Part shown: in pieces, positions 3,160-31,640 of the stretch
How positions within the stretch are numbered: position 1 is the stretch's first letter
Layout: the number at the start of each line of letters is the position of its first letter
Origin: an uncultured Opitutales bacterium
GTDB taxonomy: Bacteria; Verrucomicrobiota; Verrucomicrobiia; Opitutales; Intestinicryptomonadaceae
Assembly (NCBI GenBank): GCA_934660865.1
Contig: CAKUIA010000003.1
Location: 30,001-62,000, forward strand
Direction of reading: 5' to 3'
DNA: 32,000 nucleotides
Notes under the pieces: model-generated
Told to the model about the DNA's origin: nothing
Databases searched by the model: none
The model's input: the letters and a program-made list of their open reading frames with translations, nothing else
Made by a program: the position numbers and the translations under genes

Positions 3160-3903
3160 ATGAATTATCGTATTTTTGCTTTACTTTCCCTATTGTTCTT
3201 TTGTGTGTCGGGCTCGGTTTTTGCGCAGAATAAAACGCAGAACGCCGCTGCCGACGACGACATGCAACTGGAAACTTCCTCTAAAAAAGCCCCCGCAAAA
3301 CGCGGTGCTAAAAAGGGCGCAAAGGCCAACCAGAAAGACCCTGTTTTGGTCGAAAGCGTAGACTTTAAAAACGTGCAAATAGGCAGGGCAAACAACTGGA
3401 TTAGGGCAACGGTTAAACTGCGCTGCATAGACAATCCCGACGCCGAAACCAACAAAGACCTTAACCCCGACTGGGTCCGCAATGTAGAATTGAAAATCGT
3501 GTGCGCCTATAAAGACGAAAAAATGGGCTCGGCGGCAAACCCCAAGTTTGTTTGGTTTAGCTCCAGCGCCACGTTGTTTGCGATGAAGCGCAACAGCGCA
3601 AGCTCGCTTACTTTCTATATCCCGTGGGAGGCCTACAACGTATACAGAATAAAAGACACCCCCTACGCCTGGTTGGTAGACCTTTCCGTAAACGGCACAA
3701 ACTACCCGCTTACAAAAAACAACCTAAAACAGCGCTGCAGTTTGGGCACGCAGGGCAAAACCTTTGTAGAAAAGGCTGTTGCCAATTTAGACGCCAACAA
3801 GGGCGTTATGGTTCCCTACGAAAAGGCGCCTTTCTATGTCCAGTATAACGAGCTTAACTATATGGACAAAAACGGCGTTCCTCCCACATTGGTTTCCGAA
3901 TAG
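3160..3903 (+). CDS. Sec-secreted beta-rich protein with a Lys-rich linker; first gene of the pilus/secretin-like cluster (Amuc_1102 position)
   Basis: The ATG at 3160 gives MNYRIFALLSLLFFCVSGSVFA|Q, a classical Sec signal; the track TTG at 3124 adds 12 non-signal residues. A disordered basic stretch follows (KKAPAKRGAKKGAKANQKD), then a beta-rich domain. There is no class III (prepilin) G|FxxxE signal. Confidence 0.5.
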   Translation: MNYRIFALLSLLFFCVSGSVFAQNKTQNAAADDDMQLETSSKKAPAKRGAKKGAKANQKDPVLVESVDFKNVQIGRANNWIRATVKLRCIDNPDAETNKDLNPDWVRNVELKIVCAYKDEKMGSAANPKFVWFSSSATLFAMKRNSASSLTFYIPWEAYNVYRIKDTPYAWLVDLSVNGTNYPLTKNNLKQRCSLGTQGKTFVEKAVANLDANKGVMVPYEKAPFYVQYNELNYMDKNGVPPTLVSE

Positions 3904-3975
3904 TGTAAATTTTTAAACTGGGCGCAAGGCGCGGGCTTTGCCGCCCAAATTTTATAAAAAAACTTCAATAAAAAT

Positions 3976-5640
3976 ATGGCTTCGAAAAGCAAACTAATAA
4001 TAAATTGCGGAACAACATACGTAACAGCGGGGCTTTTTAGCTGCGACTCGAAAAAGCTTGTTCTGGAAAAGTTTTACGCCGAAGAGCTGCTTTACGACTA
4101 CTCCGACCAGTCGCAATGGTTGCCGGCTCTTACAAGCGCGCTTAAAAAAATGAACTTGTCGGGCAAGGCGGTGGTTATTGCCCCCGCAAGCATTATACTG
4201 CCCAAAACCATACAAGTTCCCCACGTAACCGGCGACAGGCAAAAGGAAGTTATCGGCTTTGAGGCCGCAAAGAACATTCCCTACGACCTTAGCGAAGTAA
4301 CATGGGACTATCAGGTTATTTCCGACGACGGCGTTGAAACCGAAGTATTGCTTGTTTCTATGCGCAAGTCGGCGGCAAACGATTTTTGCGATGCGATAAG
4401 CCAGGCGGGCGTTGTTCCCGAATCTTTGGAGGCTTCGTCGGTGCTAGACTATAACGCCTGGAAGCTCTTTTCTTTGCCCGAAAACGCCATTATGCTTAAC
4501 GTTGGGGCAAGAACTACAAATATGATTATCTCGCGCGACGAGGGGCTTTTTGTAAGGAGCATTCCCATAGGCGGCAACTCGCTTACGCAGGCCATTGCCG
4601 ATTCGCTGGGCAAAAACTTCCAGCAAACCGAGGGCATAAAAACAACTTTCTATTCGAACGAGGCAAACTACAATTCTTCCGACGCCGCCGCCGACATTTT
4701 CAAGAACAACGAAAAGGCGGTTATAAAGCGCATAAGCATGGAAATAAAGCGCTCTATATTGGCGTACCGCCGCAAGGTGAAAGACCCTGTTTCGAAGATT
4801 TACCTTACCGGCCGCGGCTCGCTTTTGCCCGACTTTTCGCAGATTTTGTGCGAAGACCAGGGCGTTAGTGTAGAATACCTTAACCCGCTGGAAAATTTGG
4901 CCATAAGCCCGAAGGTAGACGGCAACGTTTTAAATTCCAATTCGGCGGCTCTAAGCGAGCTTATTGGCGAAGCTTCGCGTTTGGTGTTGGGCGAAAAGGC
5001 CGTTGGCGTAAACCTTTTGCCGCCCGAAATAGGCGCGCACTTGGCATTCGAGGCAAAACGCCCGCTTTTGATTGTTTCGGCGCTGATTTTGGCGTGCTCT
5101 ACAATTTTGCCGTTTGTTTATGTAAACAATGCAATTTCGGCCCGCAAAAGCCTTACAAAAGAGCTTAACAGAGCCGTTCCCGCAATGAACGAGCGCATAG
5201 AGCAGGTTGCCGCCAACAAGGAGAAGGTAGACAAGCTTATCGCCAAAATAGGCGACTTGGAGGGCTTGGCAAACACCAAATCCAACTGGATGAATTTCTT
5301 TGTAGACCTTGAAAAGCGTATTGTAGAGGCCAAAGACGTATGGCTTGAAGGCCTTAACGTTGTAAGGACGGCCGCCGTAAAAGACGCAAAGGGCAATATC
5401 CGCAAAAAGGCTGAATATAAGCTGGAAGTAACCGGCCGTTTGCTTTTGCGCGATGTAGACCCGAAAGACCCCTCGCGCTACGACTCGGCAGCCGCAACAA
5501 AGCGCATAACCGATTTGTTAAAGACTTTCAAGAATTCGGATTTTATAACCGACTATTTGAATGTAAAGACAGACCCCACCAACCCGAGGGTTTTGAAATT
5601 TACGTTCACGCTGTTGGTAAACGAGAAAAAGCCCATATAA
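3976..5640 (+). CDS. pilM: PilM-PilN fusion protein (actin-like ATPase-fold PilM domain + INLLP motif, TM helix and periplasmic PilN-like domain)
   Basis: The N-terminal ~340 aa have PilM/FtsA-like grammar (LIINCGTTYVTAGLF, MLNVGARTTNMII, IPIGGNSLTQAIA, IYLTGRGSLLPDF). From residue 345 (nt 5008) the sequence is VNLLPPEI, which is the PilN N-terminal signature, followed by a TM helix (LLIVSALILACSTILPFVYV), a coiled coil and an alpha/beta domain. Confidence 0.75.
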   Translation: MASKSKLIINCGTTYVTAGLFSCDSKKLVLEKFYAEELLYDYSDQSQWLPALTSALKKMNLSGKAVVIAPASIILPKTIQVPHVTGDRQKEVIGFEAAKNIPYDLSEVTWDYQVISDDGVETEVLLVSMRKSAANDFCDAISQAGVVPESLEASSVLDYNAWKLFSLPENAIMLNVGARTTNMIISRDEGLFVRSIPIGGNSLTQAIADSLGKNFQQTEGIKTTFYSNEANYNSSDAAADIFKNNEKAVIKRISMEIKRSILAYRRKVKDPVSKIYLTGRGSLLPDFSQILCEDQGVSVEYLNPLENLAISPKVDGNVLNSNSAALSELIGEASRLVLGEKAVGVNLLPPEIGAHLAFEAKRPLLIVSALILACSTILPFVYVNNAISARKSLTKELNRAVPAMNERIEQVAANKEKVDKLIAKIGDLEGLANTKSNWMNFFVDLEKRIVEAKDVWLEGLNVVRTAAVKDAKGNIRKKAEYKLEVTGRLLLRDVDPKDPSRYDSAAATKRITDLLKTFKNSDFITDYLNVKTDPTNPRVLKFTFTLLVNEKKPI

Positions 5641-5678
5641 TTTGCCGGCGCAATCTTGCATAGAAAAAGGATTTTTAA

Positions 5679-6695
5679 ATGAATTACATAAAAAAGCACC
5701 CACTATTTTTTGCCGTAATAGCATTGTTGTTGGTAGCCTTTGTTGGCGGCGCGGCGTACGATGCGGTTTTGTTCGGCGATTTGTCGAAAGCCGAAAAGGC
5801 CTACAAAAAGGCGGCTTCGGCGTTTAAGGCCGCCCAAAACGAAGACCCTTCGGTAGAGTCGGTCGAAAAGTCGCAGCAAAACATTAAATATATTCAGGGC
5901 AAGCTCGACAAGCTTGTAAAAAGCCTAAGCCCGGCGTCTTCCGACATAATAAAGCCGGCCCCGATGAAAGAGGGCTTTGCCTTTGTGGAAGCCTTGCGCG
6001 GCATGGTAGATTCGTGGACGGCCGAAGCCAAAAGCAAGGACATTTACCTTAACGAAAACGAAAATTTCGGCTTTAAGAAGTATTATGTTGCAGGATCTAA
6101 CCCTCCCAGAGACGAGGCGGTTCCCGAATTGTGGAAGCAGGCTTCGGTTTTGGGCTACATAATGCACCAGCTTATAGATTCGAAAGACGAAAACGTGCCC
6201 ATGAAAATAAACAGCGTTATGCGCGAGGTTATTCCCGTAGAGATTTCCAAGGAGGAGGCCGCCGCCAACGCCAACAAGCGCAACACCCGTTCCAGGAGGG
6301 TTCGCCAAAGGGTACAGGCAAGCAGCGACACCTTTAAGATAGACGACATTGTTTCGGCAAGGGTAGACGGCAGCATAGACACATTGGCCTACAAAATTAC
6401 CTTTACCTCGCAAACCGACGTATTGCGCAATTTCCTTAACAAGCTTAAAGACTTTAATATTATGCTTGTTGTGCGCTCCGTAGAGGTAAAATTGGGAGGC
6501 CCCGTTAACGACGAAGCCGCTTCGGTAGATTCTTTTGAACAGGAACAGCCCGCCAAAGAGGGCGCCGAAAACGGCAAAGACGCCGCAAAAGAACCCATTA
6601 TTACCGACAATTTGTCGGAATTTACGGTTGTAATAGAATATGTTGAAATGGCCAAAGACGAAGACGTTTCGAAAGACCAAAAAGACAACAAATAA
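5679..6695 (+). CDS. N-terminally anchored PilO-like protein, Amuc_1100-family candidate
   Basis: TM anchor HPLFFAVIALLLVAFVGGAAY, then a coiled coil, a ferredoxin-like C-terminal part and an acidic tail. Segments line up with my recollection of Akkermansia Amuc_1100. FVEALRGMVDSWTAEAKSKDIYLNENENFGFKKY matches FQNELKTFRDSLISSCKKKNILITDTSSWLGFQVY. YKITFTSQTDVLRNFLNKLKD matches LEIAFQGDRESVLKAMNAITG. Confidence 0.55.
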   Translation: MNYIKKHPLFFAVIALLLVAFVGGAAYDAVLFGDLSKAEKAYKKAASAFKAAQNEDPSVESVEKSQQNIKYIQGKLDKLVKSLSPASSDIIKPAPMKEGFAFVEALRGMVDSWTAEAKSKDIYLNENENFGFKKYYVAGSNPPRDEAVPELWKQASVLGYIMHQLIDSKDENVPMKINSVMREVIPVEISKEEAAANANKRNTRSRRVRQRVQASSDTFKIDDIVSARVDGSIDTLAYKITFTSQTDVLRNFLNKLKDFNIMLVVRSVEVKLGGPVNDEAASVDSFEQEQPAKEGAENGKDAAKEPIITDNLSEFTVVIEYVEMAKDEDVSKDQKDNK

Positions 6696-6721
6696 CGGCA
6701 ATTTTTTGAAGGATTTTATAT

Positions 6722-7606
6722 ATGAACAAACATTACGATAAAATTTGCTTTGTATTGGCGCTACTGGTGTTGGCGGCAAGCGCGGTGTTCTATTTCTACA
6801 ATAGCCCGAATATTTCAAAATTCGAAAAGAAGGCAAAGGCGGCGTTGCAAAACGGCCCGCAGGGCGAAAAGTGGGTAGACAAAGATGCAAAGTTTACAAT
6901 TTCGCAGTCGATGGCGTGGGAAAACCCGCCTGCGCAGTCGGAAGACACAAGCTGGCTTTTTGAATTGTTTACCCCTCCCAAAATTTGGGTAGACAAATCC
7001 GGCAAATTCATAACCGAAGCCCCCATTACCGTTGCCGAAGTAAAAACTCCGTTCGAAATCAAATTCGCTTCGGTTACAAGCGCAGTTTACGGCATAAAGC
7101 TTACAGGTTATATAGGCTCGTCGGAAAACCCGATTTTCCAATTCCAAAATGCCGACAACAATATGGAATTTACGGGCAAAAAGGGCGTGCCCATATCCAT
7201 TAAAGACCCCACCGACATTAGCGGCAAAAGGCGCATAGACCTGGGCTTTAAGGTGCTGGACTTTAAAAAGTTTACAACCAAAAACGCCGACAACACCATT
7301 ACCATTGGTATGACCGTTGTTTTTGAAGACAAACGCCTAAGCAAACCCGTAGAGATTTCTACAGGCAAGCCCACGCTTTTGCCCGCCGAACGCCGCATAG
7401 AAATTGTGTCGGCGAAAGACCCGAACCAAAAATGGCTTATAAAGGCCAAGGGCGAAAAAATCGAATATAACAAGTCGGTTTACACGGTAAAAGACCTTTC
7501 GTTCGACAACGCTTTTGTTGTTGTAGAGCAACTTTTGCCCGACAACAAGGGCACGGTTACCAAAAAGCTGGACGCTTCGGGCGAGCACGACTTGGAAACC
7601 AAGTAG
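6722..7606 (+). CDS. Bitopic beta-rich protein in the PilP position (Amuc_1099 position); function unknown
   Basis: Single N-terminal TM helix (ICFVLALLVLAASAVFYFY) followed by about 260 aa of beta-strand-rich sequence. It starts 26 nt after the previous gene. No family motif recognised. Confidence 0.4.
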   Translation: MNKHYDKICFVLALLVLAASAVFYFYNSPNISKFEKKAKAALQNGPQGEKWVDKDAKFTISQSMAWENPPAQSEDTSWLFELFTPPKIWVDKSGKFITEAPITVAEVKTPFEIKFASVTSAVYGIKLTGYIGSSENPIFQFQNADNNMEFTGKKGVPISIKDPTDISGKRRIDLGFKVLDFKKFTTKNADNTITIGMTVVFEDKRLSKPVEISTGKPTLLPAERRIEIVSAKDPNQKWLIKAKGEKIEYNKSVYTVKDLSFDNAFVVVEQLLPDNKGTVTKKLDASGEHDLETK

Positions 7607-7622
7607 ACTGCCAAATAACCCC

Positions 7623-7645
7623 CAACAGCCTGCACAGGGCTGTTG
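7623..7645 (+). other. Intercistronic stem-loop between the PilP-position gene and the secretin gene
   Basis: CAACAGCC-tgcacag-GGCTGTTG gives an 8-bp perfect stem with a 7-nt loop, 17 nt after the stop at 7606. It is followed by a very AT-rich stretch of about 90 nt rather than a clean T-run. Confidence 0.35.
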
Positions 7646-7738
7646 TGTGTAAAATTTTTACAAAATAAAGCTTTTAAAAAATAAAAAAGACGTTATAGTC
7701 TGGATTATTAACTAAACGAAAATATACAACTAACAGAT

Positions 7739-10576
7739 ATGAAAAGAAATCGAGTTAAAAAGCTGCTTGCTTTCGCAGTGGTGCTATTCGCGGGCTTGTC
7801 GTTCGCGGTATCGTCGTATGCGCAGGCAGACAAAACCCAGCAGAAAATAAGCCTAATGGTTGCGGCTGTGCAGGCTAGAGACAGCGGCGACTTGGCCACA
7901 TCAAAGAAATCCCTCGAAGAACTGTTGAAAATTGCCCCCAAAGACAAGGCGGTTCAGCAGCTTCTTATGGACGTAAATGCGGCTATAGAAGCTCAAAACA
8001 AGGCAGTAGCCGAAGCGAAAGCCGCCGAGGCAAAGAAGGCGGCCGAAGCTAAAAAAGCGGCCGACGCCAAGAAGATTGCCGAAGCAAAATCTGCGGTAGA
8101 AGCCAAAAAAGTTGCAGAAGCTAAAGTTGCAAAAGAAACCAAAGAAGCCGCCGAAAAGGCCGCTATAGACCAGGCTTTGGCTGCTGCAGAGCACAAGCAA
8201 AAGCTTACTGTCGACAAGGTATACGAATTGATTGACGAATCGTACACCCTTATAGACGACGAAAAGTTGGCGGACGCAGCTCAAAAGATTTCTACAGCCG
8301 ACGCAAAGTTGGCCGAATGTGATTCCGCAACAGAATTGGTAAAGAACGCCAAGAAGGAAATTAAAGCCGTAAAAGCTGCGTTGGCAAAAGAAAACGCAAA
8401 AGCGGCTGCCGCCAAGGGCGACTTTGCAAGCGCAAAACAATATGCGCAAGACTATGCCGAAAAATCCGACAATTCCTCCGACTCGAAGCGCTTGGCCGAC
8501 AAGATTGCCAGAGACGACGAAAACCCCTACAAGAACACTTTGGAATCGGTAAGTCCCGAATATGTTGAACGCCAAAAGGAAGTTAAAAACCTTATCAAGC
8601 GCGGTAAAATTCAGTATTTGTATGGCGACTACGACGGCGCTGCCATAACATTCCGCTCGGTAGGCACGTTAGATTCCAACAATATAGAATCTTTGGCATA
8701 CCTTAAGCTAATCTCCGAAAAGCTTAGCAAAGTTGGCCGCAAGACTATAGAAAGCACAAGGGCTTCGATGCTTAACGACGTAAACGAAGCTTGGAGATTG
8801 CCCCAGGTTTATTCCGGCACTTTGGCTACAAACGAAAAGGGTGTAGTAGCATCTCCCGTAGCTGCAAAGTTAAAGGAAATTGTTATCCCCGAAGCTAACT
8901 TCCAGGAAGTTCCCCTTGCAAAGGTTGTAAGCACACTTTCCACTTTGTCGGTTGAATACGACAAGTCTACAGACGGCGAAAAGGGTGTTAATATGGTTCT
9001 CTACGGAGCCGAAGGCAGCAACGCCAAGAATGTTTCCATGGTATTGCGCGGCGCAACGCTTGGTCAAATCTTAGACTTTGCAACACGCCAAGTTGCCTAC
9101 ACCTACGATATAGAAGACGACGTTGTTGTAGTCCGCAAGGGTGCCGAAAATCAACCCACATTGCAGACCGACACGGTTTCGTTCCCCCTCTCGCAGGCAA
9201 CCGTAACCCGCATGTTGGGTATTTCGGGCACTAAGGCCGAAGGCGAAGGCGGCGGCAACGATCCCTTTGCAAGCAATGCGGCTTCGGCCGACAACGGCGG
9301 CGACAAGAAAGACGATATGATAAAGCAGTTCCTTACCAAAGCGGGCGTAGAATTTGGCCCTGCAAGCGGTTTGGTATTCGACGGCACTACAATTATCGTA
9401 ACAAACACGCCCCGCAATTTGGACAAAATCCGCAACATATTGCAGCGCTACAGCGAAGTAAAACAGGTAGAAGTTGAAACCAAGTTTATTGAAGTAAACC
9501 AGGGCAACTTAGACCAGTTGGCATTCAACTACAATATATCGCGCGGCAATGAATCTTTGTTCAGGACCTATAACACCGAAATGGGTACTGAAATTAGCTA
9601 TGCGAATAACCGTTTGCTCTCGATGACAAAGTCGCAGACAAACGCGGGTGCTACACCGACAACCATTGTAAATTCCGAAGCTAACGCAACTACCGGTAAA
9701 GTTGATGATCCGTACAAAGTACCTCAGAACATACCCGATGTTCCCTCGTCGATTAACTTGGCTAAGAATGCAATAACAACAGCCGACACTATCTTGGGCG
9801 TAATTAACGGCTTCCAAGCTAGAATGGCTATTACCGCAATTAGCCAGGAACAGGGCAGCGACTTGCTTTGCGCACCCAAGGTAACGGTTCTTTCGGGCGA
9901 AACCGCTCAAATTAGAATCTCGCAAGAATTGCGTTATCCCGAACAATGGGGCGACGTTCAATCTAACGTAGGTCAATCTTCGGGTTCGAACACAGGCGGC
10001 GGTGCAGCAGGTGTTACAATCACCCCCGGTACTCCGCAAGACTTCGTAAAATACGACGTTGGTGTTGTAATGGAAGTTACCCCCACGGTAGAAGAAGACT
10101 CGTCTATAACCTTGTTGCTAAACCCCACCGTAAGCGAATTTGAAGGCTTTATGGAATACGGCGGCGTTGCAGTTGCCTTGTCGGGCTACATAACGGTTAC
10201 CGTTCCCTCGGGCTTCATTCAGCCGGTATTCTCGGTTCGTGAAGTTCGCACAAAGGTTACAGTGTTCGACGGCGCAACCGTTGTATTGGGCGGTTTAACA
10301 CGCGAAGAAGTTAAATCTGTAAACGACAAAGTTCCCGTTTTGGGCGATATCCCCTTGTTGGGCCGTCTCTTCAAATCGAAGGGCGAAACTCGCCAAAAGA
10401 AGAACTTGTTGATATTCGTAACGGCAAACAGAATCTCTCCTGGAGGCAGCATAGCCAACGAACAGTTCTCGGCAATGCGTCCAGGCAGCTTGTATCAAAG
10501 CCCGATAGTTGTATCGCCTGGCGGAGCTATCAAGCGTATCAGAGCTGTAGAAAAAGACACAGCCGCTACAAAATAA
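7739..10576 (+). CDS. Secretin (type II/type IV pilus secretin family, GspD/PilQ-like) with a long helical N-terminal extension
   Basis: Signal peptide ending SSYA|QA. An N0/STN-like domain is present (IPEANFQEVPLAKVVSTLS...VSMVLRGATLGQILDFATRQVAYTYDIEDDVVVV). The secretin core starts at VEVETKFIEVNQGNLDQL (nt 9467). The hallmark C-terminal motif is VPVLGDIPLLGRLFKSKGETRQKKNLLIFVTANRI. Confidence 0.9.
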   Translation: MKRNRVKKLLAFAVVLFAGLSFAVSSYAQADKTQQKISLMVAAVQARDSGDLATSKKSLEELLKIAPKDKAVQQLLMDVNAAIEAQNKAVAEAKAAEAKKAAEAKKAADAKKIAEAKSAVEAKKVAEAKVAKETKEAAEKAAIDQALAAAEHKQKLTVDKVYELIDESYTLIDDEKLADAAQKISTADAKLAECDSATELVKNAKKEIKAVKAALAKENAKAAAAKGDFASAKQYAQDYAEKSDNSSDSKRLADKIARDDENPYKNTLESVSPEYVERQKEVKNLIKRGKIQYLYGDYDGAAITFRSVGTLDSNNIESLAYLKLISEKLSKVGRKTIESTRASMLNDVNEAWRLPQVYSGTLATNEKGVVASPVAAKLKEIVIPEANFQEVPLAKVVSTLSTLSVEYDKSTDGEKGVNMVLYGAEGSNAKNVSMVLRGATLGQILDFATRQVAYTYDIEDDVVVVRKGAENQPTLQTDTVSFPLSQATVTRMLGISGTKAEGEGGGNDPFASNAASADNGGDKKDDMIKQFLTKAGVEFGPASGLVFDGTTIIVTNTPRNLDKIRNILQRYSEVKQVEVETKFIEVNQGNLDQLAFNYNISRGNESLFRTYNTEMGTEISYANNRLLSMTKSQTNAGATPTTIVNSEANATTGKVDDPYKVPQNIPDVPSSINLAKNAITTADTILGVINGFQARMAITAISQEQGSDLLCAPKVTVLSGETAQIRISQELRYPEQWGDVQSNVGQSSGSNTGGGAAGVTITPGTPQDFVKYDVGVVMEVTPTVEEDSSITLLLNPTVSEFEGFMEYGGVAVALSGYITVTVPSGFIQPVFSVREVRTKVTVFDGATVVLGGLTREEVKSVNDKVPVLGDIPLLGRLFKSKGETRQKKNLLIFVTANRISPGGSIANEQFSAMRPGSLYQSPIVVSPGGAIKRIRAVEKDTAATK
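8003..8164 (+). repeat. In-frame 18-nt (6-aa) tandem repeat, 9 units, encoding an Ala/Glu/Lys helix inside the secretin N-terminus
   Basis: Residues 89-142 read AVAEAK AAEAKK AAEAKK AADAKK IAEAKS AVEAKK VAEAKV AKETKE AAEKAA. At the DNA level the units use varied synonymous codons, so the repeat is old or under selection rather than a recent slippage product. Confidence 0.8.
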
Positions 10577-10600: not shown

Positions 10601-10631
10601 GGGGCTTACCGCAAGGTAAGCCCTTTTTTTG
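10601..10631 (+). terminator. Rho-independent terminator of the secretin cluster
   Basis: GGGCTTACC-gcaa-GGTAAGCCC gives a 9-bp stem with a GNRA-like tetraloop, followed by T7 (10624-10630), 25 nt after the stop codon. Confidence 0.8.
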
Positions 10632-10634
10632 TCT

Positions 10635-12308: not shown

Positions 12309-13961
12309 ATGAAGCCGTTTACAAAAGCCGTTTTTGCGGGTCTGAAAGCAGTTTTGGGCTTTGCCGCAATATTTTTGGCCGTAAACGTGCCTTCGTATTT
12401 TTCGGGCATTTCAAAGTCGCAGCTAATTAGCGCAAACAATTCGGTAAACCGCAAAACCCTTGCCGAATTTTATTTGGGCACGGCAAAGCCCGCGCTTGCA
12501 ATAGACCTTTTAAAATACGACAATTCGCCCCAGGCAAAGGCGCTTAAAGCCGCAAGCGAAACAATGCTGGGCGAAAAGGGCGTTTGGCGCGTGGCAGGCG
12601 GCGAAGAAACTTTCTTTTCGGCGCTGTATTCCACATTTTCGCTTAAAGACGAAAGCGCGCAAAGCGTATATGCGCTCTTGGCCGCGCCGCAAATAAGAAA
12701 CGCGTTTTTCGATTTCCTTTCGCAAAGCGAAATGCCCCTTGTTTGCGAAGTTTTAAAGCTGCGCAATTTAAACACGCTTTTGCTGCCCGCGGCCTCGACA
12801 TCGGCGGGGGTTCCCTATTCGGCGGCGGTTGCAATAACAGCCCTAAGCGTTCAAAGCGGCTCGTTTAACGCCGAGTTTTTAAAAGACTTTGCCCTGAAGT
12901 TGGGCAATATAAAAAACGACGACGCCTCGCGCTTTAGGTACGAATCGTACTGCGTGGGAATGTTGTCGTTCGCAAAAAGGCTTAACTGGATAGAATTGAG
13001 CGAGCTTAATTCAAAGATCGGCTCGATGTCGGACTATGTGGATTTGGCCAACGCCTTTAAAAACGCGCCCGACGCAAAGTCTTTCGATTTAGCGTTTTCG
13101 GCGCTGCTTATGTGCAAGGATATCGGCGGCATTTGCAAATATCTGGGAGACGGCAAGAAAAACGCGTGGGGCGACTTTATCTATGCAGGCGATTTGGGCG
13201 CGGGGGCTTTGGAGCTTTTGCTGAAAAACAACAGGCCCATACATAAAATGCCAAAGTGTCTGGAGGCTCTCGACATTTGGCGCATTGAAAATTCGGCAAG
13301 GGCGGGGGCGTTTTGCGCGCAGTTTCCCGCGCTTTCGAAGCTGCTTAAGTTTGCGCTTGCGCTTGCAGGCTGCTATGCAATAATTTCGTCGCTTCGCGGG
13401 CTGTTTTCGGAGAAAACCACAAGGGGCGCGCTGTTTTTCCTCCGTAATTTGTTTGCGGCGGGCATTGCGGCGCTTTTGATTATTTTGGCCGTAGAGCCCG
13501 CCATTTTCGATATAAGCTTCGGGGCGCAAAAAGCCCCCGAAATAAAATTTGCATTTTCAAACATAATAAATTCAAACAAGGTAAAATCGGTTATGGACTT
13601 CAAACTCGACATGCCGACTATAGTGTCGGTTTCGGTATTCCTGCTTTTGCAGTTTACCATATTTGTAATGAGCCTTATTAAAATTGCGGTGGTAAAAAAA
13701 CTAAAAGTTCCCGCCTCGCTAAAAATAGAGCTTTTAAACAACGAGGAAAACCTCTTCGACCTGGGGCTTTATGTAGGTTTGGCGGGCACGGTTCTTTCGC
13801 TTATAATGCTTAGCCTAAACTGGGTAGACGCGGGCCTTATGGCGGGCTATACTTCAACGCTGTTCGGCATTATGTTTACGGCGGTTCTTAAAATTTCGTT
13901 CGTGCGCCCCTACAAGCGCAGCTTGCTTGTTCAGGCCGCAACCCAAATCCAAAACAAATAG
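12309..13961 (+). CDS. Polytopic membrane protein: large N-terminal extracytoplasmic domain + C-terminal MotA/TolQ/ExbB-like proton-channel motifs
   Basis: N-terminal TM helix, about 310 aa of soluble domain, then 5-6 TM helices. The last two helices read GLYVGLAGTVLSLIML and AGYTSTLFGIMFTAVLKISFVRP. From memory, these resemble the GLLGTVxG and ALxTTxxGLxxAxP signatures of the MotA/ExbB/TolQ family. Confidence 0.45.
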   Translation: MKPFTKAVFAGLKAVLGFAAIFLAVNVPSYFSGISKSQLISANNSVNRKTLAEFYLGTAKPALAIDLLKYDNSPQAKALKAASETMLGEKGVWRVAGGEETFFSALYSTFSLKDESAQSVYALLAAPQIRNAFFDFLSQSEMPLVCEVLKLRNLNTLLLPAASTSAGVPYSAAVAITALSVQSGSFNAEFLKDFALKLGNIKNDDASRFRYESYCVGMLSFAKRLNWIELSELNSKIGSMSDYVDLANAFKNAPDAKSFDLAFSALLMCKDIGGICKYLGDGKKNAWGDFIYAGDLGAGALELLLKNNRPIHKMPKCLEALDIWRIENSARAGAFCAQFPALSKLLKFALALAGCYAIISSLRGLFSEKTTRGALFFLRNLFAAGIAALLIILAVEPAIFDISFGAQKAPEIKFAFSNIINSNKVKSVMDFKLDMPTIVSVSVFLLLQFTIFVMSLIKIAVVKKLKVPASLKIELLNNEENLFDLGLYVGLAGTVLSLIMLSLNWVDAGLMAGYTSTLFGIMFTAVLKISFVRPYKRSLLVQAATQIQNK

Positions 13962-15670: not shown

Positions 15671-17692
15671 ATGAAATTTTTTGCATATACGCTGCTTGCC
15701 GCGCTTTTGTTTTCGGGGCTTTCGTGCTCGAAACAAAAGACGCCCGAAGAAACCCTGTTTGCCGGCGTTCCCGAAAGCGTCGCAAAAACCATAAGCGACA
15801 ACGCGCAAAAATATTTCGCAAATTCGCCCGCGCACAAAAAGCGCTATATGCAAAAGCAGGTTGACGCCTACAACGAAATTCAAAATGCGCAAATAAACCT
15901 GCCCGCCGAAACCTACGCAAAAATTTTGGCGCAGGCCGAATCGAAATTTGCCGCCGACTACATAGAGCGCAAAAACTGGCTTTTTGCCCAGACGCTTTCG
16001 TGTGCAAATTTAAACGAATACAAGTTGTCGTACCCGCAGCAAGTCTACAACGAAACGGTTTCGGTTCTCGAAAAATTCTACAAAGACGACTTCTTTAAAA
16101 TGGAGAACAATTTTTCGGAATGGGCGTCGTTTTTGTCGAGGGATTTGGACCCGAAAAAAGCGCTTTCGAAAGACGAACTTGCGCAGCTGAAAAAGCGCGC
16201 GATAGAAAACAGCAAGGGCATTGCCTCGAACGCAAAGGCCTATGCAGACGCGCAGGTGGCCGCCGCCCGCAGGCTTGCGTCTATAGGCGCTCCAAAAGCT
16301 TCGCTTAAAAACGACTTCGATTCGCTGCGCGATTTTGTTAGGGCAAAATACCCCAACGAATACGAAAAGCAGCTTGCCGAATTCGAAATCGGCATTAAGG
16401 AAATTATTGCAAACGACAGACAAATACGCTCGCAAATAAAGGCCGAAAAAGTAAGGCGCAACAACCTGCGCCTGCGCGAAAACGAAACGCTTGTAGCCGA
16501 AAGCTATTCCAAAAAAATAGAAAGCGTTTTCCAAACCTCCATATTTACAAGGCGCGGCAAGCTGGAAAACGTATATACAGCGGTTCTTACCAAGATTGGC
16601 GGGCACCCCGTAATCTTGTGCACGCAGGAGTTTTTGGAGGGGCGCCTCCCCGTAAAAATATCGAACAGCCTGGGCGAAATAGTGTGCTCTAGGGCGCTGA
16701 TTTCAAAAGACTGTCCGCTGATTGCGCTTATCCCCGACAGCCTCGACAAGGCGTTTATTCCGCTTAAGATTATGGAAAAGTTTTCGCCCGACGCCGAAAA
16801 GGATTTGTGCCTGGTTTCGCACGACTCGGGCGCGATAAAAGTGGGCTATGTGCGCATATTCTCCGAAGACGACAAATATTTTAACCTTGTGTTCGGCAAA
16901 ATCCCGCGCTTTGAACGCGATGTTGCAATAAAGCCCATAAGCCGCGACGGCACAAAATTTATGTCTACCGTGTCGCAGACGGTGCCCGGCATTTCGCAGT
17001 CGATTATTATAGACCCCGAAAATATGACGGTTATATCAATGGCCGTAAACCGCTACAATTCGGGCGTTATAGATTATTCGGGCAAAACGGGCTCTATTAT
17101 AGGCCACGAAGATATGGACTTGCCCGACTACAACACTTTGGTAAGGCAGTTCGACTCGTCGTTAAAGTCGGAAAAGCCGTTCGGTACAATAGACTTTTTA
17201 AGGCTTAACAACCTTAAGGAATGGAGCAAATTCAGCATGCAGGAGCTTGAGCGCCAAAAAACCGAAATACGCCGCTATACCGATTTAAACAACGACTTTC
17301 TCGTTTTCTTTAAGCGCAATCTATACGGCTATGCAATGCGCAGCGGCGCGCTCGGGGCCATAGCCGAAAAACATTCGATAAACCTTTTAAAGCGCAAAAT
17401 GTCGAAGGAAATGTATGTTAAGTGCTACCGCAACTATATGCTGGACGTGCTAATGGAGCTAAAGCGCAACATGCTTACCCCAGTAGACGTAGACCGCTAT
17501 TACAGCGTTTACAGAAACGCCCTGCGCTACCAGATAAACCTTAGAAAGGCCATGGCCGAATATGTTTCGGAGGGCATAAAAGACTACAATATAATAAACA
17601 TTTTGCATGCCGACTTGCTTACAAGATACAACAATCCCTATTCGTCGGTAGACATAACGCAGTTCGGCGGCGCAATGGGTTCGGGTATGTAG
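15671..17692 (+). CDS. Probable lipoprotein of unknown function: helical N-terminal half + degenerate trypsin-like (PA-clan) middle domain + helical C-terminus
   Basis: MKFFAYTLLAALLFSGLSC is a signal peptide with a relaxed lipobox. The ATG lies 1 nt after the pdxA stop. The middle region carries ILCTQEFL, DCPLIALIPD and PGISQSIIIDPENMTVISMAV in His-box/Asp-box/Ser-box order. Confidence 0.5.
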   Translation: MKFFAYTLLAALLFSGLSCSKQKTPEETLFAGVPESVAKTISDNAQKYFANSPAHKKRYMQKQVDAYNEIQNAQINLPAETYAKILAQAESKFAADYIERKNWLFAQTLSCANLNEYKLSYPQQVYNETVSVLEKFYKDDFFKMENNFSEWASFLSRDLDPKKALSKDELAQLKKRAIENSKGIASNAKAYADAQVAAARRLASIGAPKASLKNDFDSLRDFVRAKYPNEYEKQLAEFEIGIKEIIANDRQIRSQIKAEKVRRNNLRLRENETLVAESYSKKIESVFQTSIFTRRGKLENVYTAVLTKIGGHPVILCTQEFLEGRLPVKISNSLGEIVCSRALISKDCPLIALIPDSLDKAFIPLKIMEKFSPDAEKDLCLVSHDSGAIKVGYVRIFSEDDKYFNLVFGKIPRFERDVAIKPISRDGTKFMSTVSQTVPGISQSIIIDPENMTVISMAVNRYNSGVIDYSGKTGSIIGHEDMDLPDYNTLVRQFDSSLKSEKPFGTIDFLRLNNLKEWSKFSMQELERQKTEIRRYTDLNNDFLVFFKRNLYGYAMRSGALGAIAEKHSINLLKRKMSKEMYVKCYRNYMLDVLMELKRNMLTPVDVDRYYSVYRNALRYQINLRKAMAEYVSEGIKDYNIINILHADLLTRYNNPYSSVDITQFGGAMGSGM

Positions 17693-30581: not shown

Positions 30582-30983
30582 ATGGAAACGCAATCTTCAG
30601 AACTTTTGGGATTGGGCCTTACGGCGGCTACCGCCCTGCTTGGCGCGTATTATTTGGCTTTGAAAATAAGGGATATGCAGGCCGAAAAACCCGATCCGAA
30701 AATAACGTATGTAACATATACAAGTATGGAAAAAATGCGCAACGAACTAATGCGCATAATAACCGAGTCGGGCGGCGAGCTTAGGCTTTTGCGCTCGGAA
30801 ATAAGGGAGGACATTCGTCTAATGCAGCGCCAGTATGCCCAAAGCCTGGGCGAAACGCGCGAGCTTATAAGCAAAAACGCGCAAAACATAAGCTCGCTTA
30901 TAGCGCAAAGCGCGCTTGCAAACCAGCGCATAGGCGAACTCGGAGTTAGAGTGGAAAAAATCGCGTCAAAGGCTGTAAAATGA
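30582..30983 (+). CDS. Small bitopic coiled-coil protein (phage-module associated)
   Basis: N-terminal TM helix LLGLGLTAATALLGAYYLAL followed by about 90 aa of heptad-like helix. No family motif recognised. Confidence 0.4.
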   Translation: METQSSELLGLGLTAATALLGAYYLALKIRDMQAEKPDPKITYVTYTSMEKMRNELMRIITESGGELRLLRSEIREDIRLMQRQYAQSLGETRELISKNAQNISSLIAQSALANQRIGELGVRVEKIASKAVK

Positions 30984-31243
30984 GCTACTGCAAAATTATG
31001 GTGCGCACGGCAATACTGCTTCAGCTAAGGGCGGCAAGCCCCGCGCAAATGCCCGTAAAAAACCTTCTGTGCGGGCTTAAAATCGCGTCGTTCGAAATAG
31101 GCGAAAGCGAGCTTTTGCGCGAGCTGGACTACCTTGAAAAGAAAGGCTACATAAAAATGGGCGAAGACGAAATTTCGCCGTCGTATAAGCGCTGCACGCT
31201 AAGCGCTTTGGCCTACGACTATCTCGAAAGAAGGGGCTTTTAG
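30980..31243 (+). CDS. Small winged-helix-like protein (phage-module associated)
   Basis: 87 aa. LLRELDYLEKKGYIKMGEDE resembles the recognition helix plus wing of wHTH proteins. The start overlaps the upstream stop (ATGA). Confidence 0.35.
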   Translation: MSYCKIMVRTAILLQLRAASPAQMPVKNLLCGLKIASFEIGESELLRELDYLEKKGYIKMGEDEISPSYKRCTLSALAYDYLERRGF

Positions 31244-31244
31244 T

Positions 31245-31640
31245 ATGCCGCCAAAAGTTGTTGAAACACAAGCCGCTAAAACGGCGGCTTCTTCGGCAAA
31301 GCCGAAAAGGCGCGCAAAAAAGAGGGCGCTTGGCACTCCCTTTTGCGAGTATCTCGACAAAATACGCGCGGCGCGCGAAAACGCAATTACGGCCTCGGAA
31401 ATAGTTTTGGGCACGCTTTGCGACAAGCGCAAGGTTTTGGTGGATTTAATTTTGGAGGCGCTGTTCGACTATTTTTGCGAAAGCGACATTGCCGAAATTA
31501 CTCCCGCCGCCCTTAACGCAATAGCGGGGATAGTGCAAAAACTTTCGGCTACGGCCAAAGACGACAACGGCAAAACGCCGTCGGGCGAAATAGGCGGCGA
31601 AACACTCGCCCAAATAGAGGACAAACTTAAGTTGTTATGA
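31245..31640 (+). CDS. Putative small terminase / DNA-recognition subunit (assigned by position only)
   Basis: 131 aa with a basic N-terminus (AKPKRRAKKRALG) and a helical body. It lies immediately upstream of, and is translationally coupled to, the large terminase. Confidence 0.3.
   Translation: MPPKVVETQAAKTAASSAKPKRRAKKRALGTPFCEYLDKIRAARENAITASEIVLGTLCDKRKVLVDLILEALFDYFCESDIAEITPAALNAIAGIVQKLSATAKDDNGKTPSGEIGGETLAQIEDKLKLL

Follow-up and report, generated by a model that had tools for sequence, protein, structure and literature searches.

The closest described relative of the gene cluster analysed here is the Amuc_1102-Amuc_1098 locus of Akkermansia muciniphila. Work from 2017 onwards has described this locus as a pili-like gene cluster and found its products to be abundant in envelope fractions (PMC5332112), and a review treats it as a gene cluster for type IV pili in which Amuc_1098 is the PilQ secretin (PMC10688800). 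It has been named MUL2 and is presented as important for mucin acquisition (bioRxiv 10.64898/2025.12.30.696933). A 2026 study in ISME J surveyed MUL2 synteny across Verrucomicrobiales and Chthoniobacterales, found it conserved across Akkermansiaceae and less so in Chthoniobacterales, did not detect it in Methylacidiphilales, and proposed that a type-IV-like pilus mediates attachment to glycans rich in fucose; Opitutales are not mentioned in its main text (PMC13174399). We analysed a stretch of 32,000 nucleotides (the window; contig CAKUIA010000003.1) from an uncultured Opitutales bacterium of the human gut. Five of its genes, here called g1 to g5, are very probably the Opitutales version of Amuc_1102-1098, with one-to-one correspondence. 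An earlier reading of the DNA (the original prediction) had proposed this equivalence, which is borne out by NCBIfam matches for g2-g5, a PDB profile match for g3 and a fold match for g1. It had also held that the function of the locus was not established; that statement is outdated, as MUL2 has been linked to mucin acquisition, a type-IV-like pilus has been proposed and the synteny has already been surveyed. The window extends a known locus type to the Opitutales, including human-gut lineages, and is not a new system.

The five genes are real: four of them have significant family matches, and their order is kept across dozens of related genomes. They are co-directional, with intergenic gaps of 72, 38, 26 and 132 nucleotides, as determined from the open reading frame (ORF) listing and by direct reading of the sequence. 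An intrinsic terminator with a fold of -23.4 kcal/mol (z = -3.3 relative to shuffled sequences) closes the operon. The arrangement originally described, including the gaps and the strong terminator, was reproduced exactly. The GC content here is 47%. The cluster and MUL2 are alike in having five genes in the same order and of similar sizes: the products here have 247, 554, 338, 294 and 945 amino acids, the NCBIfam models have 608, 326, 321 and 805 positions, and the Amuc_1102 crystal chain has 192 residues. For every protein the best family or structure match is the Amuc counterpart, and Sec signals or signal anchors are found on all proteins except the PilM-like one (Ottman 2017, PMC5332112). 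In contrast to MUL2, the cluster belongs to another Verrucomicrobiota order and has different flanking genes, g1 has no sequence similarity to Amuc_1102, and g5 is longer than Amuc_1098 and carries an Ala/Lys-rich N-terminal extension.

The counterpart of Amuc_1101 (MUL2B) is g2, whose best family match is Amuc_1101_fam (NF045709; E 9.9e-74 over residues 1-500, 249 bits against a cut-off of 650), and its N-terminal part matches PilM_2 (PF11104, 8e-26). The closest solved relative of the PilM domain is Myxococcus xanthus PilM (3JC8, 1.5e-27), with Thermus thermophilus PilM also near. After this domain g2 carries the PilN peptide known as INLLP, here GVNLLP, in which G344, N346, L347, L348 and P349 are invariant in 15 homologues. 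In a phmmer alignment, the motif coincides with the RINLLP of 5EOU, an engineered Pseudomonas aeruginosa PilM-PilN(1-12) chimera. A profile of the C-terminal 230 residues had M. xanthus PilN as its top PDB match (3JC8_Na, E 0.0034); the match starts at INLLP, covers only the motif, the transmembrane helix and the coiled coil, and places the single transmembrane helix of g2 on that of PilN. Because the PilN profile match begins at INLLP and the 5EOU alignment runs to "...NLLP", g2 is, as judged from these alignments, a natural PilM-PilN fusion in which the PilN peptide is covalently joined to the PilM domain, as had been proposed. We infer that the PilM domain binds its own fused peptide. None of 33 g2 C-terminal regions matched the PilN Pfam family; one of them matched GspL_C (E 0.071), and T2SSM was also matched by single family members. 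Alignment of the g2 C-terminus with g3 by hhalign found nothing in common beyond the transmembrane helix and so showed no PilN/PilO-type paralogy of the two.

The secretin gene, g5, falls by far best into Amuc_1098_fam (NF042912), with E 2.2e-114 over model positions 13-803 of 805 and 383 bits against a cut-off of 750. The Secretin domain is also recognised (PF00263, 7e-36); AMIN and Secretin_N gave no Pfam match on g5. The score was better for GspD (TIGR02517, 1.6e-35) than for PilQ (TIGR02515, 8.5e-27), and the best solved relatives are GspD channels of type II secretion systems (T2SS) together with PilQ channels of type IV pili. These matches identify g5 as a predicted outer-membrane secretin and the counterpart of Amuc_1098.

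The two genes between the fusion and the secretin encode putative inner-membrane partners. For g3, the match to Amuc_1100_fam (NF038287) had E 9.9e-24 and 84 bits against a cut-off of 180, a protein identical to g3 has a precomputed match to Pfam PF28028 "Amuc_1100" at E <= 1e-5, and a profile of 38 sequences had the Amuc_1100 structures 6LAD and 6KNY as top PDB matches (E 2.4e-4). A GspM match was weak (E 0.064), and Pfam PilO gave no match to g3, so that its likeness to PilO or PilN comes through homology to Amuc_1100, which is stated to be structurally similar to PilO/PilN (bioRxiv 10.64898/2025.12.30.696933). On this family evidence g3 is the likely counterpart of Amuc_1100 and PilO/GspM-like, in agreement with its original description as PilO-like. 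The evidence for g4 as the Amuc_1099 counterpart in the PilP/GspC position is the match of its N-terminal 93 residues to Amuc_1099_fam (NF042425; E 7e-4, 19 bits against a cut-off of 50). The same family was the only NCBIfam match across the g4 family, being found in 18 of 74 relatives (best E 2.5e-5), and relatives of g4 form 296 representative clusters at E <= 1e-3. The protein has an N-terminal transmembrane helix and no lipobox. It was modelled by AlphaFold2 (AF2) with high confidence (predicted local distance difference test, pLDDT, 91.9); compared with PDB folds, the model had a best E of 0.024 at a TM-score of 0.13, and neither PilP nor GspC was among the 50 matches listed. Searching the PDB sequences with g4, both as a single query and as a profile, likewise gave nothing interpretable. 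The earlier assignment of g4 as a PilP-position protein is therefore right about its place in the gene order and finds no PilP match in a confidently modelled fold.

The first gene encodes a protein with a cleavable signal peptide at residues 1-22, which confirms that it is a Sec-signal protein. No Pfam, NCBIfam or PDB sequence match was found for g1, even with a 38-sequence profile, and a word-indexed homologue search with g1 alone returned only two near-identical matches; its relatives were collected by synteny. The AF2 model of g1 (pLDDT 82.9, predicted TM-score 0.81) was compared by Foldseek with 350,542 PDB chains. The top match, and the sole one with E <= 1e-3, was chain 7DSZ_C of Amuc_1102 (E 9.7e-4, probability 1.00, TM-score 0.49, 161 columns, 9% identity in the structural alignment). 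The link to Amuc_1102 comes from this fold comparison, the sequence searches having given nothing relevant, and on the modelled fold g1 is the predicted counterpart of Amuc_1102 (MUL2A), with an immunoglobulin (Ig)-like fold. A trimer has been published for Amuc_1102. It lacks the pilin-type N-terminal helix on which type IV filaments are built. Assignment of g1 as a lipoprotein on the basis of an "LFFC" sequence was rejected, since this Cys varies within the family and the residue at -1 is at odds with a lipobox. The family has an invariant F..P motif (F152, P155; FYxP) and a conserved C-terminal tail (residues ~240-247) of the form P-[S/T/A]-[Y/F]-[I/L/V]-x, in which P242 is nearly invariant. 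The tail was modelled with low confidence; it could be a docking or strand-exchange element. In one Opitutales metagenome-assembled genome (MAG), the regular g1 gene is preceded by three additional paralogues in tandem (L041 6769-8860 and 9146-9931; L numbers designate loci and contigs of this analysis).

To assess conservation, one genome per species was scanned, which gave 139 relatives, and the best 80 loci were analysed. Enough flanking sequence was available at 47 loci, and 43 of these, in Opitutales of gut, marine and freshwater origin, carry all five genes in unchanged order; two of the four exceptions are ORF-calling artefacts. The question whether the five genes travel together can be answered positively for these loci. 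A g1 homologue comes first in nearly all Opitutales loci. The exact proteins are present on human-gut metagenome contigs. The named relative nearest to g2, at 97% identity, belongs to a MAG of an uncultured Opitutales bacterium sampled from the Hadza (contig CAKTSY010000001.1), followed by other gut Opitutales (65%), by "Coraliomargarita sp. CAG:312", Merdousia and Intestinicryptomonas porci (~50%), and by marine and freshwater Opitutales such as Thalassobacterium, Coraliomargaritaceae, Puniceicoccaceae and Rariglobus (32-40%). The cultured Coraliomargarita akajimensis has the same cluster. The genes flanking the cluster vary between lineages, and the five genes therefore behave as an autonomous, vertically inherited module. 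As for the proposal of a conserved apparatus of the Planctomycetes-Verrucomicrobia-Chlamydiae (PVC) type, the same module does occur in a different genome background, but a PVC-wide scope is unsupported because every retrieved relative is verrucomicrobial. One marine clade (L045, L046, L048, L053, L054, L055, L059, L061 and L064) keeps g2-g5, and no g1 homologue was found in the fetched flanks of its members. In L055, a NUDIX gene and a 400-nucleotide gap precede g2.

The intergenic regions also differ between lineages. In most gut-clade loci (L005-L035, L067, L075 and L083), the g1-g2 gap is long, at 70-280 nucleotides, and contains a strong hairpin rich in GC (-16 to -34 kcal/mol), whereas in the marine clades this spacer has 20-60 nucleotides and no hairpin. 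The g2-g3 and g3-g4 gaps are tiny in all loci. The g1-g2 hairpin of the window may be a partial terminator or a stabiliser. The long hairpin-bearing gap in gut lineages suggests that g1 is transcribed in excess of g2-g5. The features of the cluster, and of the motor genes found near related clusters, are listed in the Table.

Table. Positions and layout of the cluster features; positions refer to the window unless an L number is given
Feature	Position	Strand	Description
g1	3160-3903	+	247 amino acids; start is the ATG giving a Sec signal peptide
g1 layout			Signal peptide residues 1-22 (VFA|Q); Lys/Ala-rich linker residues 23-60; beta-sandwich; two C-terminal helices
g1-g2 gap, GC-rich hairpin	3919-3947	+	Fold -20.5 kcal/mol; z only -1.3
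g2	3976-5640	+	554 amino acids
g2 layout			PilM actin-like cytoplasmic domain residues ~1-335; PilN N-terminal motif; one transmembrane helix; periplasmic coiled coil; C-terminal domain
g2, G-V-N-L-L-P (PilN "INLLP" peptide)	5005-5022	+	Residues 344-349
g2, single transmembrane helix	5062-5130	+	Residues ~363-385; only hydrophobic segment of the protein
g3	5679-6695	+	338 amino acids
g3 layout			Transmembrane helix residues ~8-30; coiled coil; alpha/beta domain; acidic tail; bitopic
g4	6722-7606	+	294 amino acids
g4 layout			Transmembrane anchor residues ~8-27; extended linker with conserved W..F-T-P-P-x-I; all-beta C-terminal region residues 113-290
g4-g5 gap, perfect 9-bp hairpin	7623-7645	+	No clear T-tract; not conserved at other loci
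g5	7739-10576	+	945 amino acids
g5 layout			Signal peptide; Ala/Lys-rich helical or tetratricopeptide repeat (TPR)-like N-terminal region residues ~30-330; periplasmic N-domains; secretin domain
g5, secretin domain	9836-10426	+	Residues 700-896
Intrinsic terminator closing the operon	10601-10634	+	10-bp stem with 6 GC pairs, 4-nucleotide loop, T7
Downstream prepilin region	L056 19297-20013		Prepilin
Downstream prepilin and PilB region	L057 17932-20529		Prepilin and PilB
Downstream prepilin and PilB region	L070 18979-21514		Prepilin and PilB
L087 operon	L087 188-5263		Pilin, PilB, PilC-type platform (T2SSF, 5e-41), 436-amino-acid prepilin-like protein

The cluster can be compared with the type IVa PilM-PilN-PilO-PilP-PilQ systems of M. 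xanthus (3JC8), P. aeruginosa and T. thermophilus. It shares with them the gene order, the PilM actin-like domain, the succession of INLLP, membrane-spanning helix and coiled coil known from PilN, a bitopic partner resembling PilO, and a secretin, and their operons too are typically unlinked from pilB, pilC and pilA. It differs in that PilM and PilN are one chain, that the slot of the lipoprotein PilP is taken by the larger, transmembrane-anchored g4 without a PilP fold, that g5 has no Pfam match to AMIN or Secretin_N, and that an extra Sec-dependent Ig-like gene comes first.

We examined the surroundings of the cluster for the genes that power such systems. In Pfam scans, the 20 other long ORFs taken as genes of the window showed housekeeping or catabolic functions only (GluQRS-like, GDSL, RNase T, IMPase, LpxA, PdxA, PfkB, decarboxylase, spermidine synthase, GH92, CitMHS, HisA/F and PriA), with no match to T2SSE, T2SSF, N_methyl or prepilin peptidase. 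Regular-expression searches of the six frames of the window found neither G[PSA]TGSGK[ST] nor a class III prepilin signal. Both results agree with the original statement that the 32 kb hold no prepilin, ATPase, platform or peptidase. Pilus motor genes were also not found in ~10 kb of the source contig on either side of the window. This lack had been taken as a distinguishing feature of the cluster, a view that is not supported: classical type IVa pilMNOPQ operons also stand alone, so that the absence of pilin, ATPase and platform genes within 32 or ~52 kb is not diagnostic, and pilin and PilB genes adjoin the cluster in marine relatives. In P. aeruginosa, the type IVa pilMNOPQ operon is separate from pilABCD and pilTU.

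Three marine loci (L056, L057 and L070) provide the cases in which a pilin gene does co-localise with the cluster. Each has a class III prepilin gene (GFTLIE; N_methyl PF07963) 1.6-3 kb downstream of the secretin gene on the same strand. In L057 and L070 it is directly followed by a gene for a PilB-type ATPase with MshEN and T2SSE domains (PF00437, about 1e-125); L056 ends before that position. When metagenome contigs were searched with the marine PilB, six short contigs matched, none of them tied to the organism of the window. Contig L087 encodes an ATPase 86% identical to the marine one, in an operon that also includes a PilC-type platform gene. The L056, L057, L070 and L087 loci indicate that Opitutales possess PilB/PilC motors, sometimes beside the cluster. 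The L057/L070/L087-type pilin-PilB(-PilC) operon is a candidate motor for this cluster family. For Akkermansia, other pilus or pseudopilus proteins are reported to be encoded at distant loci (bioRxiv 10.64898/2025.12.30.696933).

Taking these results together, we favour with moderate confidence the reading that the cluster is the scaffold and channel half of a split, type-IVa-pilus-like machine for glycan foraging. Its ground is what was observed of the gene identities, the topology, the fusion, the conservation and the homology to the Amuc proteins. In the proposed mechanism, g2 (PilM-PilN) and g3 (PilO-like) would form an inner-membrane alignment ring, and g4 would be a lineage-specific connector in place of PilP or GspC that couples this ring to the g5 secretin; the physical assembly and its stoichiometry are inferred, as are the remote motor and the glycan role. 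The motor, encoded elsewhere in the genome in the manner of classical split type IVa systems, would comprise a PilB-type ATPase and a PilC platform together with prepilins and their peptidase, and would power the assembly of a filament through the g5 channel. The g1 protein would be a Sec-exported accessory or glycan-binding component, probably present in excess, in the periplasm or on the surface. By analogy with Akkermansia, the machine may capture or take up complex glycans of hosts or algae; a need for it in growing on mucin glycans or taking them up is reported only for A. muciniphila, in secondary sources.

Several observations weigh against this proposal. Motor, platform, peptidase and prepilin genes are absent within ~52 kb around the cluster studied here, and none lies within 10 kb of the cluster in any gut-clade locus. 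Of the 43 loci that extend at least 4 kb beyond the secretin gene, only three have pilin or PilB genes adjacent to the cluster; these three are mutually related, and a terminator and non-coding DNA separate the cluster from the pilin/PilB module. Since g1 is not a class III prepilin, the filament subunit is not encoded in the cluster. The PilN match of g2 is marginal by its E-value, and the g4 model has neither a PilP nor a GspC fold. All four NCBIfam scores of g2-g5 are well under the equivalog cut-offs, and the proteins are therefore distant homologues rather than Akkermansia-type equivalogs.

The alternative that survives best is the one towards which the original prediction leaned, namely that the five genes make a self-sufficient machine without pilins or a PilB-type ATPase. 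The scaffold would gate the secretin, which would export and perhaps polymerise g1 or admit large glycans to the periplasm, using another source of energy. We regard this as unlikely, although the missing motor genes described above are in its favour, as is the movement of the five genes as a unit while their neighbours change. Against it, PilM-PilN-PilO scaffolds are only known to function together with a PilB/PilC motor, from whose genes their operons as a rule lie apart; pilin and PilB genes lie near the cluster in marine relatives, and PilC is present in the orthologous operon on L087. The position of g1 fits a major subunit in that the gene is always first, is followed in gut lineages by a hairpin in a long gap, and has tandem copies in L041. 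However, the marine clade with g2-g5 but no nearby g1 indicates that g1 is not an obligatory substrate, and g1 does not have the N-terminal helix of type IV filaments. The Akkermansia locus is tied to mucin uptake into the cell, which the autonomous reading would accommodate. On the question, raised in the original prediction, whether the rest of the genome carries a linked motor operon, the evidence leans towards a split system. We consider it rather improbable that a complete pilin-independent apparatus exists across the Verrucomicrobiota, in which a PilMN/PilO-type ring and a new connector, g4, would work the secretin without PilB and PilC. If true, it would serve glycan import or the display or polymerisation of g1/Amuc_1102, and would be a new functional class of secretin machine.

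It is also improbable, in our estimate, that the cluster is the platform and channel of a T2SS that secretes glycan-degrading enzymes, with pseudopilins and GspE/F encoded elsewhere. The fused g2 has the architecture of GspL, with an actin-like cytoplasmic domain, one transmembrane helix and a periplasmic domain, but its cytoplasmic domain matches PilM rather than GspL, and INLLP is a PilN signature. Likewise, g4 is anchored by a transmembrane helix like the connector GspC and is not lipidated like PilP, but it has no detectable homology region (HR) or PDZ domain of GspC. The GspM-like partner is represented by the weak match of g3, with single relatives matching T2SSM and GspL_C, and g5 scores nearer to GspD than to PilQ, its best solved relatives including GspD channels. 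No significant GspL, GspM or GspC match was obtained in the cluster, where only the secretin is GspD-like. In addition, the gene order is that of pilMNOPQ, the context is not that of a gsp operon, and the family counts as pilus-like both at NCBI and in the Akkermansia literature (PMC10688800). That the cluster provides scaffold and channel for a competence pilus, which takes up DNA in Thermus or Neisseria, is highly improbable: the solved structures nearest to g2 include the T. thermophilus competence PilM and HofQ-type DNA-uptake porin models match the g5 C-terminus, but such matches cover only generic PilM and secretin cores, Pfam found no com genes nearby in the window, the Akkermansia phenotype concerns mucin, and competence systems have nothing equivalent to the additional proteins resembling Amuc_1102 and Amuc_1099.

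Some other features of the window and its flanks were recorded. Directly after priA, at window positions 30582-31640, lie three packed ORFs of 133, 87 and 131 amino acids without Pfam match, the middle one (87 amino acids) having a weak match to phrog_436. They are immediately followed, just past the 3' end of the window, by a gene for a terminase large subunit (Terminase_6N/6C; L093 10453-11739). These ORFs and the terminase gene may be a prophage remnant or a packaging module like that of a gene transfer agent (GTA). Two ORFs at 12309-13961 (550 amino acids) and 15671-17692 (673 amino acids), without Pfam or NCBIfam match, sit among lpxA, pdxA and a sugar/ureide permease gene. The ORF at 412-849 (145 amino acids) has no family match and no identical called gene in the public collection, and is perhaps not a gene. 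On the source contig, secA and the GluQRS-like gene flank the gene of a 1063-amino-acid protein (L001 4288-7479), which lies ~3 kb before the window begins and has Pfam matches that are like carbohydrate-binding modules (CBM) and to HZS_alpha (beta-propeller).

The cluster described here belongs to a family of some consequence in Akkermansia. In A. muciniphila, Amuc_1098-1102 rank with the most abundant proteins of the envelope; one of them, Amuc_1100, is a therapeutic candidate, and the set is reportedly required for mucin foraging. Our analysis indicates that the five-gene module is near-universal in a second order, the Opitutales. Its carriers include CAG-312-like lineages of the human gut, which are common in non-industrial populations, and marine polysaccharide degraders; among cultured organisms they are C. 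akajimensis, Intestinicryptomonas porci and Thalassobacterium. This distribution gives comparative leverage through the conserved motifs GVNLLP in g2, the W..FTPP linker in g4 and FYxP in g1, and through a clade that naturally has no g1. Three marine lineages with an adjacent prepilin gene, two of them also with the gene for a PilB-type ATPase, put a name to a candidate motor. What drives the machine, what the proteins resembling Amuc_1102 and Amuc_1099 do and which way transport runs are questions of the MUL2 field generally and not peculiar to this window.

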